From a virus (Duplodnaviria; Caudoviricetes): a DNA stretch of 64,000 nucleotides. Under the pieces are notes generated by a model. It saw only the letters and a list, made by a program, of their open reading frames with translations, was not told where the DNA came from and did no database searches. A program made the translations under genes and the position numbers. The stretch lies in IMG/VR virus record IMGVR_UViG_3300037424_001651, positions 1-64,000 of that record; one strand, given 5' to 3'. Shown here piece after piece: positions 56,142 to 59,534 of this stretch (positions are counted from its first letter, which is position 1; each line of letters opens with the position of its first letter).

Positions 56142-56687
56142 ATGGCCGAGAAGTGGCGACGTTTTACTGCGTCCGATAATCCGTGGTCCCACGAGCCAGC
56201 AGAAGGTTGGCGGTCCAAGAACTGGGAGATTATCTTCCGGCCGAACTTCCATATCGTGTCCGGCTTGGTCCGGGCACGGTATGTGCGGCCCGACGGGTAT
56301 TTGCCGTGGGCTTACTTCCTTGTTTACAGCAGCGGCAAGCTTGGGTGGGACTGGCCGGAGCGCGTGCCGAAGTATGTTGAGGACAAGGTCAACGCCTTGA
56401 CGCGCGCGCAAGCTGGATCGTTTGGGGACGGCGCGCCGAAACGTCAGGGATATCGAGTTTTATACGCTCCGTTGGGTTCTTCCCGAAAGGTAGAGTGGAG
56501 CACACACGCAAACGCGCGTGAGGCAGTGAAGGAAGCACGTCGGTTGGTCCGGCATCGCGGTGTTTCAGGGGCACACGCTCGGTATGCACCGTGGATCAGC
56601 GTCATCGTTTTGGGGCCGCGCGGTAAGCTTTACTACGAGGGTTGGAACGAATTATTCGGCCCATCTGAGAGTTGGCGGGACGTTTAG
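56142..56687 (+). CDS. two-domain hypothetical protein (AGSFG linker)
   Basis: SD GAGGAGG + ATG. Confidence 0.65.
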   Translation: MAEKWRRFTASDNPWSHEPAEGWRSKNWEIIFRPNFHIVSGLVRARYVRPDGYLPWAYFLVYSSGKLGWDWPERVPKYVEDKVNALTRAQAGSFGDGAPKRQGYRVLYAPLGSSRKVEWSTHANAREAVKEARRLVRHRGVSGAHARYAPWISVIVLGPRGKLYYEGWNELFGPSESWRDV

Positions 56688-56702
56688 GAACAGGAGGATG
56701 CG

Positions 56703-57092
56703 ATGAGAAGACGAACTTTTGGTTTGGCAGCATGGCCTGAGTTGCAGCGGATCGGTGGCGTTGATGATCTCGTGCTCAGCGACGATGACATCATCAAACT
56801 GAGTCGCCACGTGACGGATCGACCCGGTGGTGGCGACAGCCCACTTGCGTCCTTGCTGGGTGCGTGCCTTGTCTGGCGACGCGGCACGAATGCAGTTGGG
56901 AAGGTCATAGGCGGCGCGACCGCGAACTTCGTGGCTTACCACCTCAGCAAGGGAAAGTCCGAGTCTTGGATCGTCAAGAGTTACCGTGCACATGTTGGCC
57001 GGGTTCTTCGCGCCGAGTTGAATAAGCAGCAAGCGGAGTTCGACTCCTACTTCGAGGAGTTGTGGGAGTTGCGGCAGCATCGCCGCCGCTAA
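56703..57092 (+). CDS. hypothetical protein
   Basis: SD AGGAGG. Confidence 0.6.
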   Translation: MRRRTFGLAAWPELQRIGGVDDLVLSDDDIIKLSRHVTDRPGGGDSPLASLLGACLVWRRGTNAVGKVIGGATANFVAYHLSKGKSESWIVKSYRAHVGRVLRAELNKQQAEFDSYFEELWELRQHRRR

Positions 57093-57118
57093 AGGAGTAG
57101 ACGTGATGACTCTGTTAC

Positions 57119-58300
57119 CTAAAGGAGACAGCTTCTAGGAACATGCAGACCAACGTCCACATTACGTCCCTCCGGCTCCATCCAAGCCGGGAGTGCGCGC
57201 GCGAGGATATTTCTCGCCGCGTTCTCGTCTCTGTGCAGGACCAGCCCGCAATGCGGACACGAGTGTTTCCGCTCGCGCAGCGTCTTGGGCACCTTCTGGC
57301 CGCAGCCGCTGCAATCTTGGCTTGTTCCTGCGGGATTCACAGCCACAACCTGCGTACCGGCGCTCTCAGCCTTGTACTTCAAGATGTTCAAGAACTGGCC
57401 CCAGCCAGCGTCTCGAATCGCCCGGTTCAACCAGCGGGGACCGCCCATCGTGGTAATGGTCAAATCCTCCACGGCGATGAAGCCGTAGCGACGGATCAAT
57501 TCCAGAGCTTCTTTGTGATGAAAGTCGCGCCGCTTGTTCGCGACGTGCGCATGCAGCGCCTGCACGCGTCCCTTCGTCTTCGCCCGGCGTTTGCTTCCGG
57601 GTTTGGCCCGGGCGAGCGCTTTTTGCTTGCGGCGCAGCGTAGGCAAGGTGTCTTTGAGAAAGCGCGGGTTCGGGATCTTCGCGCCATCAGGATGCGTGGC
57701 GAAACGCTCCAGCCCCAGATCGATCCCGGTCTTCGGCTCGTGAGCGCGCTCTTCAGGCAAGATTTTCGGCGCGCCGACGTCACAGGAAAAGACGGCGTAC
57801 CACTTGCCTGCTTCGCGCTTGATACAGACGGTTTTGATCTCGCCTTGCAACGGCCGGTGCAACTTGATACGCACCTTACCGACGTACTGGACGCGCAGCC
57901 TCGGGTGTGCCGGGTCGAGCAGCACAATTCCATCCCCATAACTCGGAAGCGTGAACGAGTCGAAGCGATCTCGGGGCTTGAAGCGTGGGTAGCCCGGCTT
58001 CTCGCCCGGTTTGGCCTTTTTGACGCGCCGGAAGAACGCCTCGAAGGACTTGTTGAGCTGACGCAAGGTAGCTTGCGCGCTGGAGAAGTTGAGCCGGGCG
58101 AAGTAAGCGTTCGAGCCGCGTTCGGCTTTGTACCACGCAGATTGTTCAGGGTAATTGACGCTACGTCCTTCGGCTTCCCAGCCTGCTTTGCGCTTAGCGA
58201 GGGCGACGTTGTAGAGGCGGCGGTGGGTTTCGAGCATGCTCGAAAGCTCCCCGATCTGTACCTTGTTGGGGTACAGACGGTACTTGAAGCTACGCCTCAT
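57119..58300 (-). CDS. tnpB: TnpB RNA-guided nuclease
   Basis: YRLYPN HTH, GIDLGL, AVEDL, CxxC...CxxC, RDENAA; RuvC D-E-D intact. Confidence 0.96.
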   Translation of the reverse strand: MRRSFKYRLYPNKVQIGELSSMLETHRRLYNVALAKRKAGWEAEGRSVNYPEQSAWYKAERGSNAYFARLNFSSAQATLRQLNKSFEAFFRRVKKAKPGEKPGYPRFKPRDRFDSFTLPSYGDGIVLLDPAHPRLRVQYVGKVRIKLHRPLQGEIKTVCIKREAGKWYAVFSCDVGAPKILPEERAHEPKTGIDLGLERFATHPDGAKIPNPRFLKDTLPTLRRKQKALARAKPGSKRRAKTKGRVQALHAHVANKRRDFHHKEALELIRRYGFIAVEDLTITTMGGPRWLNRAIRDAGWGQFLNILKYKAESAGTQVVAVNPAGTSQDCSGCGQKVPKTLRERKHSCPHCGLVLHRDENAARNILARALPAWMEPEGRNVDVGLHVPRSCLL

Positions 58301-58303
58301 ACC

Positions 58304-58702
58304 TTATTTACCCTTCTGGGCCTCGATATATTCACGAACTGTCTTCTCGTTGACGTGTCCGACGGTCCCGGCGTAGTAGCTTCGACTCCAGAGGGTCGGC
58401 AAGCGCGAGCGCAACGCCGGGAATTTTTGACGCAAGATGCGCGAGGTCGATCCTTTGAGGCGGTTGATGATCTCGGCCACGCACCAGCGAGGATCGGCTT
58501 CGACAAAGAGATGTACATGATCGGGCATGATCTCCAGCGTGTGTACAGTCATGTCCAGCGTATCCGCCTTTTCACGCAGCAAGACTTCGAGTCGCGCAGC
58601 CACATCGTCGTCGAGGACGGGCCGACGATACTTGGGGCACCACACGATGTGATACTTCAAGTTGAAGACGGCTCCGGCGTTTTTGCTGCAGCGAGCTTCC
58701 AT
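58304..58702 (-). CDS. tnpA: Y1 HUH transposase
   Basis: YHIVWCPKYRR, DHVH, WSRSYY, YIEAQ. Confidence 0.96.
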   Translation of the reverse strand: MEARCSKNAGAVFNLKYHIVWCPKYRRPVLDDDVAARLEVLLREKADTLDMTVHTLEIMPDHVHLFVEADPRWCVAEIINRLKGSTSRILRQKFPALRSRLPTLWSRSYYAGTVGHVNEKTVREYIEAQKGK

Positions 58703-58709
58703 GCCGCAC

Positions 58710-58737
58710 AGTATACACAAGACAAATACTTAATCAA
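58710..58737 (-). promoter_or_regulatory. tnpA promoter
   Basis: TTGATT-16 nt-TATACT with upstream TG. Confidence 0.5.
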
Positions 58738-58797
58738 GAAAGCAGGGACTGCATTCCTCCGCCACCTGAAGGAGGCGGTCCCCTGCGGGAGAAGATT

Positions 58798-59235
58798 ATG
58801 GCTGGACCGAAGAAGACCGAGAAACGCGACCCGGGCGATCCGCTTGAGGTTGTCATACAGCCGATGCTGGAAGTGCCGAACCGAACCATCTTCTATGTGC
58901 GCAAGGTCAAGATCTACAAGCTTGGTCTGGTAGCATACGAACGCATGGCGAAACAAGGCATCCAGCCTAAATTAGCTTCGCAGGCGTTCATGGGCACGCC
59001 GCGCTATTGGCAGCTTCGCCGCCGGATCCGGCAAGAGGCTGGCTACCGCGATGATGGGTCGGGCAAGTTCATTTACCTGCCTGACGGTTACCGTGAGCGT
59101 GTGCAGGCCAACGAGAACGAACTGCTCGACGCTTTCTGGTCGGGTTGGTACGGCTGGGGAATGCTCGACCGTGGCGGGAGCATCGAGAACGCGAAGTACG
59201 ACGGCCGCTGGCGCATGACCGTAGGAGATTTCTGA
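58798..59235 (+). CDS. hypothetical protein whose ATG is the IS target site
   Basis: ATGG = reverse complement of CCAT. Confidence 0.7.
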   Translation: MAGPKKTEKRDPGDPLEVVIQPMLEVPNRTIFYVRKVKIYKLGLVAYERMAKQGIQPKLASQAFMGTPRYWQLRRRIRQEAGYRDDGSGKFIYLPDGYRERVQANENELLDAFWSGWYGWGMLDRGGSIENAKYDGRWRMTVGDF

Positions 59236-59237
59236 TA

Positions 59238-59534
59238 GTGCCGAAGATCTATGGAAAGCTGGCGGGTGTTTTACAGGCGCGTGATGCGGCGGGCAAGTTG
59301 ATCAAGCCCGTGCGGCGCATCGGTATGACGAGTATCGAGTCAACCCTCATGACGCACTATGGTGGTTTGACGTTGACGTTGGACGCGCGCGGCTACTTCT
59401 GTTTGGTAGCGCAATCGCGCAGCGGAGAAACGCTAGCTGTGCAGGAAGGTAATGTACACGCGTTGCTCGACGCCGCTGGATTGTTGGAACCAGAAGTATT
59501 GGAAGCGCTCTTGAGCGAGGAAGAGCTGCACTGA
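59238..59534 (+). CDS. hypothetical protein
   Basis: SD AGGAG + GTG. Confidence 0.5.
   Translation: MPKIYGKLAGVLQARDAAGKLIKPVRRIGMTSIESTLMTHYGGLTLTLDARGYFCLVAQSRSGETLAVQEGNVHALLDAAGLLEPEVLEALLSEEELH

Follow-up and report, generated by a model that had tools for sequence, protein, structure and literature searches.

How does a transposon come to lie exactly between the Shine-Dalgarno (SD) sequence and the start codon of a phage gene, and what could it do from there? The question is raised by a 1,695-bp insertion sequence (IS) of the IS200/IS605 family, IS605 group, which occupies positions 57103-58797 on the minus strand of a 64,000-nucleotide stretch of viral DNA. This stretch, called the window throughout, comprises positions 1 to 64,000 of the 75.5-kb IMG/VR virus record IMGVR_UViG_3300037424_001651. 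A first-pass annotation, made ahead of any database search, had proposed that the element sits between an SD sequence and its ATG, that its ends as well as the target-adjacent motif (TAM) and the guide of its nuclease TnpB can be read from the letters, and that TnpB drives the element among sibling phages. We are confident that the locus holds an intact, probably mobile IS605-group element with tnpA and tnpB, docked 3' of CCAT between SD and ATG; the action of TnpB is predicted by analogy. Judged by its sequence, it is a new member of a well-understood kind, and relatives together with published rules make the reading of its ends, target and guide a sound one.

Genes and boundaries of the element

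Both genes of the element lie on the minus strand, with tnpB downstream of tnpA. The tnpA gene (58304-58702) encodes a Y1 (HUH) transposase of 132 aa, which matches Pfam Y1_Tnp (E 1.6e-41) and aligns to TnpA of IS608 (2a6m, E 5e-30); the H-V-H motif is retained, as is the Tyr in the C-terminal helix. The tnpB gene (57119-58300) encodes a predicted RNA-guided nuclease of 393 aa with the Pfam domains HTH_OrfB_IS605, OrfB_IS605 and Cas12f1-like_TNB. It aligns over nearly its full length to TnpB of ISDra2 (8bf8/8exa, E 5e-56), and the comparison with 8bf8 reveals that the Asp-Glu-Asp triad of the RuvC domain and both CxxC pairs of the zinc finger are retained. The open reading frame (ORF) is complete with its catalytic residues, in agreement with the earlier description of tnpB as intact; its activity is a prediction. 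A Y1 TnpA, a tnpB located 3' of tnpA, subterminal palindromes and the lack of both terminal inverted repeats and a target-site duplication place the element in the IS605 group of the IS200/IS605 family. The RuvC triad, the zinc-finger cysteines and a structured scaffold at the 3' end of tnpB and the right end are those of an OMEGA nuclease.

The boundaries of the element follow from its flanks. On the plus strand, the phage gene upstream (56703-57092, up to 129 aa; the 3' end of the upstream ORF of contig L038 aligns to it) terminates with the stop codon TAA at 57090-57092, 10 nt before the insertion point. It is followed by AGGAG (57093-57097), the native SD sequence of the next gene, and by TAGAC (57098-57102), which immediately precedes the element. 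On the other side, a phage gene of 145 aa (58798-59235, plus strand) begins with ATG-GCT at 58798, and its start codon adjoins the left end of the element. Removal of 57103-58797 rebuilds the junction TAA-AGGAG-TAGAC-ATG-GCT, as the first-pass annotation had noted. The same arrangement was found uninterrupted in related phages, in which both genes are adjacent and the element is missing (metagenome contigs L034-L036 and L037/L038). In L037/L038 the stop codon of the upstream gene and an SD-like GGAGG stand 4 nt before the same ATGGCTGGACC, and in L034-L036 a GAGG is located 5 nt before the same ATGGCTGGACC; SD-like motifs thus occupy the same place in the empty alleles as AGGAG in the window. 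Deletion of the element from the window recreates the arrangement of the empty alleles with zero bases gained or lost. Both ends are known to the base, because the related phages show the uninterrupted site, and the position exactly between SD and ATG is confirmed.

Two further copies are in good agreement with these boundaries. A sister copy on contig L039, whose TnpB is 81% identical, shares blastn similarity with the window that is limited to 57099-58802. L034, L035 and L039 originate from the same samples, and the gene that flanks the L039 copy resembles the Dda-like helicase of the window phage. The similarity to a copy in run X4, an aquatic metagenome (93.6% identical), stops exactly at 57103. 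The tetranucleotide GTCT, which follows the right-end TCAC in both the window copy and L039, was considered as part of the element and rejected: it belongs to the phage flank in the empty alleles, and X4 continues otherwise. The helicase gene of the window (about 23500) was likewise considered as an empty site for the L039 insertion and rejected as too diverged. A blastn search of the element against 50,697 phage records gave no match.

The record is a metagenome assembly, and a bacterial IS might have been joined to a phage contig in the course of assembly. We regard the probability of such a chimera as negligible, since both junctions coincide with canonical cleavage sites and the syntenic empty site is rebuilt to the base. 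Furthermore, a separate Logan assembly reveals the same arrangement on a 20-kb contig, which may derive from the same sample.

Ends, target motif and predicted guide

Ends of related elements were read from bacterial metagenome-assembled genomes (MAGs), viral contigs and loose ends of metagenome contigs. Among the bacterial MAGs, the TnpBs closest to that of the window are 54-61% identical and occur in Gemmataceae.

Seen on the minus strand, the left end (58797-58759) is composed of a 15-nt linker (58797-58783), the guide tetranucleotide GGGA (58782-58779) and an imperfect hairpin of 20 nt (58778-58759), and it is directly preceded by CCAT (58801-58798). The right end (57135-57103) consists of the guide tetranucleotide GAAG (57135-57132), a 20-nt hairpin (57131-57112) and a 9-nt tail (57111-57103), the last bases of which are the cleavage motif TCAC (57106-57103). 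All of these features lie where the first-pass annotation had placed them. The cleavage sites are thereby located 19 nt from the left and 9 nt from the right hairpin. Folding of the DNA likewise gave the left hairpin. The two hairpins are homologous position by position: a T/T mismatch is found at the same place, and two pairs are changed on both sides in a compensatory manner. Relatives show the same left-end layout with a linker of 14-15 nt. More than 15 relatives share the right-end layout, and their sequences are unrelated immediately after TCAC. Such a shared architecture in more than 15 relatives puts the homology of the hairpins beyond chance. Scans for the left end returned few sequences. 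The exact hairpin pattern was absent from the viral contigs, and its sole match among metagenome contigs (L041) lies inside unrelated coding sequence and was dismissed as chance. Among the 401 genomes of the phylum of G005, the left-end pattern was found in G005 again, with two copies, and in no other genome.

In IS608, the left cleavage site falls outside the element, at 19 nt 5' of the hairpin, and the right one inside it, at 10 nt 3' of the hairpin; a 4-nt guide stands 5' of each hairpin (PMC3201880). The window element resembles IS608 (ISHp608 of Helicobacter pylori) in the order tnpA-tnpB, the Y1 HUH transposase, the subterminal imperfect hairpins and the absence of a target duplication. 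It shares as well the 4-nt guides, the left site at 19 nt outside the element and the right site a few nt 3' of the hairpin inside it. It differs in its target (CCAT instead of TTAC), its right cleavage motif (TCAC instead of TCAA), the length of the right tail (9 nt instead of 10) and its left guide (GGGA instead of AAAG), and in that its host is a phage. The right guide of IS608 is GAAT, as compared to GAAG here.

The left end adjoins CCAT in all 16 related insertions that could be read (16/16), and the right end finishes with TCAC in every related element read. The base preceding CCAT is G, T or C among the related insertions. In ISDra2 and ISGst, the TAM of TnpB equals the left-end target motif of TnpA (PMC8612924; bioRxiv 10.1101/2023.03.14.532601). 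CCAT is therefore well supported as the target of TnpA and, by this equivalence, as the putative TAM of TnpB. The TAM had previously been given as 5'-(G)CCAT; CCAT stands, but the G does not, since a variable fifth base shows that it is not required in the target. Within the literature library searched, no paper was found that names a CCAT TAM.

The last approximately 16 nt of the reRNA (right-end RNA) of ISDra2 derive from the DNA that flanks the right end (PMC8612924). By this rule, the guide of the window element would be the transcript of 57102-57083 on the minus strand, a predicted flank of 20 nt, which is the same stretch that had been proposed from the letters. In the occupied allele, the bases directly before this flank are TCAC and not CCAT. 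With TCAC in the place of the TAM, the element should not cut itself.

The guide position corresponds to the element's own empty site alone. This bears on the idea that the phage has domesticated TnpB, for instance to attack competing phages or to regulate under the guidance of an RNA, such that it no longer serves the transposon. TnpB elements do recur in phages, as exemplified by the viral loci L057-L064 with the 5'-truncated L062 among them. Nevertheless, domestication is very improbable for the window copy: besides the match of its guide position, tnpA and both ends are intact, and the retained nuclease triad separates its TnpB from a TldR-like dead repressor.

A structured RNA at the 3' end of the element is indicated by an alignment (A1) of the last 210 nt of 15 elements. 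It reveals four helices within the final approximately 80 nt, the right-end hairpin included, which in the window span 57188-57112 on the minus strand and overlap the 3' end of tnpB. The helices comprise 27 pairs with 96% of the alignment cells paired, and 20 of the 27 pairs show compensatory change. In one helix of six pairs both sides vary at every pair, and it is never broken. The covariation reaches 0.61, in contrast to 0.20 in shuffled alignments (0/500 reach 0.61) and about 0.1 with slid partners. This is strong evidence from the alignment for a conserved scaffold, as expected for an omegaRNA. Among the runs that hold the element, no RNA run is listed.

With ISDra2 of Deinococcus radiodurans (8bf8, 8exa, 8h1j) the element has in common the catalytic triad and zinc finger, the scaffold that overlaps the tnpB 3' end and the right end, and the logic of TAM and guide. 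It is distinguished by a predicted TAM of four nucleotides, CCAT, as compared to TTGAT, by an RNA that lacks an Rfam match, and by being known from its sequence alone.

A number of observations weigh against an element that functions in all its parts. GGGA/CCAT and GAAG/TCAC fit the register of IS608, with pairs at positions 1, 2 and 4 of the left tetranucleotide and at position 4 of the right one, but covariation within the clade could not confirm it: the tetranucleotides are nearly invariant, and the right-end pairing rule lacks such support, because two relatives carry GAAA in place of GAAG with TCAC unchanged. A scan of 56500-59300 against Rfam, with E values up to 1, gave no family match. 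In the assays of Meers et al. (bioRxiv 10.1101/2023.03.14.532601), the HpyTnpB of IS608 showed no activity on its native donor joint; hence, an intact sequence is no guarantee of activity. Finally, neither an empty allele of the same phage nor a contig joining across the element was found in the runs that hold the phage, which were available as contigs only, with rare variants dropped.

An element of this kind could be a fossil that no longer transposes, with an inactive TnpB or RNA. Its single copy in the whole record would fit this, as would the lack of excision products in these contig-only runs and one extra mismatch (C/A) in the right-end hairpin as compared to L039. We consider a fossil unlikely, since both ORFs are intact with all catalytic residues and both ends are complete. 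Furthermore, pieces with 100% identity were found in an unrelated soil run and copies with 94-97% identity in two other studies, which fits recent spread.

Insertion at a start codon and the open opposite strand

CCAT is the reverse complement of ATGG, with which the 145-aa gene begins. On these grounds it had been proposed that the element tends to hit start codons harmlessly. Both ends could be read in 12 insertions, 11 of which could be scored for their position relative to start codons. Three of these 11 sites coincide with the first start of an ORF of 100 codons or more, as compared to 12 of 341 (3.5%) other ATGG sites at the same loci (Fisher p about 0.008). The window insertion and that of L006 are unambiguous first starts of long ORFs, those of L007 and L009 are probably so, and L012 and L039 are possible cases. 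In L004 and L057 the element interrupts a gene, while L003, L005, L010 and L063 lie in DNA with short ORFs, as does a 13th site, L066. The enrichment thus stands, but harmlessness does not hold throughout, as two relatives interrupt genes and five are found in DNA that is non-coding or of unclear status.

In L039 (1-245 and 1940-1972), the element adjoins the in-frame ATGG of a Dda/RecD-like helicase gene of a related phage. On the far side of the element, 11 codons upstream, stands a second ATG, which overlaps the stop codon of the previous gene as ATGA. This insertion is consequently placed either at the helicase start or 11 codons inside the gene.

Displacement of the SD sequence is of consequence only if these phages make use of such sequences. 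An SD-like motif precedes 19 of 24 called starts, as compared to a background of 15%; the phages use SD sequences, and the loss of its AGGAG should matter to the 145-aa gene. The linker of the left end contains a GGGAG (58787-58791, plus strand) as a candidate replacement. The first-pass annotation had located it 8 nt before the ATG; the motif is present, but the spacing is 6 nt. L039 shows a GGGAGG 4 nt before the adjoining ATG. Of the four virus-borne copies, three have a linker with an SD-like motif, as compared to 0/10 among the others. This distribution is suggestive, although two of the three, the window and L039, are sister copies. A candidate for the proposed replacement SD is present in the window and L039 and absent from the bacterial relatives. 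Taken as a whole, these data lend weak support to harmless docking at start codons and to a replacement SD.

We slightly favor a non-adaptive origin of both the start-codon position and the GGGAG: the element would insert at any CCAT, only sites that spare coding sequence would survive in the tightly packed genome of a phage or bacterium, with ATGG start codons as a large share of them, and the motif would be a chance feature of the linker. The two interrupted genes (L004, L057) and the four insertions in short-ORF DNA among the 12 sites readable at both ends, together with L066, agree with this view. By a rough estimate rather than a calculation, start-codon ATGGs may make up about a fifth of the tolerated CCAT sites. 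An SD-like 4-mer is found in 15% of random 20-nt stretches of these phages, and the bacterial relatives show no SD-like motif in the linker. The enrichment of first starts stands against it, as does the share of SD-like linkers among virus-borne copies, which comprises few effective lineages owing to the common ancestry of the window copy and L039. A CCAT target combined with the loss of harmful insertions may be enough to generate the start-codon pattern.

The strand opposite to the transposon genes has a peculiarity of its own. A frame of 607 codons without a stop runs on the plus strand through 57110-58930, opposite to tnpA and tnpB, with its first ATG at 57143. In tnpB, none of the 393 codons is TTA, CTA or TCA; tnpA is likewise without them, because the antisense frame is open across it. 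The genes of the window phage itself contain these codons at 1.37%, according to which about 7 would be expected (P about 7e-4). In 15 tnpB genes of the clade taken together, such codons number 18, as compared to about 107 expected from position-specific composition and about 56 after correction for the rarity of NTA and NCA. This corresponds to a depletion of about 3- to 6-fold across the clade (tnpB of L002-L012, L039 and L057-L061). Mirror-image control codons were at expectation. Members with a low GC content at third codon positions, L006 and L057, are depleted as well, and the more distant TnpBs of L008, L015 and L016 show no depletion.

Avoidance of antisense stops may, as one idea, spare polarity when the element sits antisense in an operon. 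Carried further, the CCAT-targeting clade could be built for near-neutral docking before genes on the opposite strand, by way of the complement of ATGG in its target, an outward SD sequence in virus-borne lineages and a stop-free opposite strand. We hold this broader reading as speculative and doubtful. If it were true, ribosomes or transcription of the interrupted operon could cross the element without polarity, and such elements could ride tightly packed phage genomes, spreading among co-infecting phages via cutting of the empty allele by TnpB.

At the other end of the element, the displaced AGGAG now stands 5 nt before a GTG-ATG formed by the complement of the right-end tip (57103-57138, plus strand). 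This opens a mini-ORF of 11 codons; 5 nt separate its end from the ATG at 57143, the first one of the long antisense frame.

Proposed drive between phage genomes, and further copies

The likely course of events can be outlined by analogy with characterized systems. The element would have entered the phage genome as single-stranded DNA 3' of CCAT, without target duplication, and would thereby have separated the 145-aa gene from its SD sequence. As in IS608, TnpA would bind both subterminal hairpins, and its cleavage sites would be recognized by the tetranucleotides 5' of the hairpins: on the left GGGA would pair with CCAT, on the right GAAG with TCAC. As in ISDra2 and ISGst, TnpB would bind an omegaRNA derived from the 3' end of tnpB and the right end, which would reach about 16-20 nt into the flank 57102-57083. 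It is predicted to cut DNA in which CCAT is followed by the flank sequence, an arrangement expected only at the IS-free junction, and recombination after the cut would restore or copy the element. The GGGAG of the left end might meanwhile keep the interrupted gene expressed.

An experimental counterpart is ISGst of Geobacillus stearothermophilus, for which TnpA excises the element without a scar, TnpB-omegaRNA cuts the donor joint, and recombination restores the element (bioRxiv 10.1101/2023.03.14.532601). The same model of excision and donor joint would apply to the window element. ISGst, in contrast, resides in a bacterial chromosome and uses the TAM TTTAT or TTCAT, while the carrier here is a phage; thus, the role of the uncut partner would fall to a phage genome that co-replicates or co-infects.

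TnpB had been proposed to cut IS-free alleles of sibling phages in a homing-like drive, an idea that derives from the model of Meers et al. The IS-free alleles that were found, in phages related at 79-83%, differ from the guide, on a count by eye, at three or more of its first 12 positions and for this reason would probably not be cut. By analogy with the known systems, the targets of cutting would be restricted to a near-identical phage without the element, or to the same phage after excision. A 2026 review lists 'transposon non-restorative homing' against co-infecting phages or plasmids as a theoretical mode (PMC13565253). This is the same drive as that proposed for the window; the review treats it as theoretical for phages, and the window provides a natural candidate only.

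The locus is a clear natural case of a TnpA/TnpB transposon, with boundaries known to the base from empty alleles, in a phage that has its own replication genes. The viral gene set of the window includes a Dda-like/RecD-like helicase, a second helicase, a DNA polymerase and an endolysin-like protein. For a well-populated clade of TnpBs, it yields the prediction of a CCAT TAM. Phage genomes occur in many copies per cell and meet their relatives in co-infections, a setting in which RNA-guided homing could drive an element between genomes, beyond its mere retention. The window offers a testable system for drive between genomes, and for the question of whether such elements limit the damage to the operons they enter.

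The 145-aa protein behind the insertion has no assigned function. Three homologues were found, each of 145 aa, with coverage of the full query and 79-83% identity. It showed no Pfam or PHROG match, and a peptide-pattern scan of viral contigs for this gene gave no match.

Just 5' of tnpA, a consensus scan identified a promoter-like site (58737-58710, minus strand), TTGATT and TATACT separated by 16 nt; its assignment is based on position, as a single site of this kind is at chance level. This sigma-70-like candidate is located 7 nt from the ATG of tnpA, so that the tnpA mRNA would be nearly leaderless. L039 shows a similar site in the corresponding position, with the -10 box TATAAT.

Other copies display a range of states. 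The interior of the element (57104-57397 and 57994-58320) recurs with 100% identity in four short soil-metagenome contigs of a different study, in which no phage flank was detected; they could stem from a copy carried by the host or from the same phage sequenced at low depth. In L062 (2380-3671 of IMGVR_UViG_3300050021_000174), tnpB and the right end are intact, and what precedes them is the last approximately 100 nt of tnpA without a left end. By this layout, it is an immobilised TnpB in a viral contig. The copy of L057/L064 (about 1990-2030) is located 3' of CCAT inside a same-strand ORF that starts with MKWQPIETAP, and the right arm of its left hairpin is seemingly deleted. L063 (IMGVR_UViG_3300047160_026798) has a left end of CCAT, a 14-nt linker that contains an SD-like GAGGA, and GGGA. 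Its right tail comprises 14 nt instead of 9, and both flanks are repeat units of approximately 17 nt that contain GCGTCAC. Finally, the tnpB-only copy L011 (about 2200-2290) looks degenerate: GGGA is replaced by AGGA and CCAT by CTAT, and its flank carries three tandem copies of a unit of approximately 25 nt.

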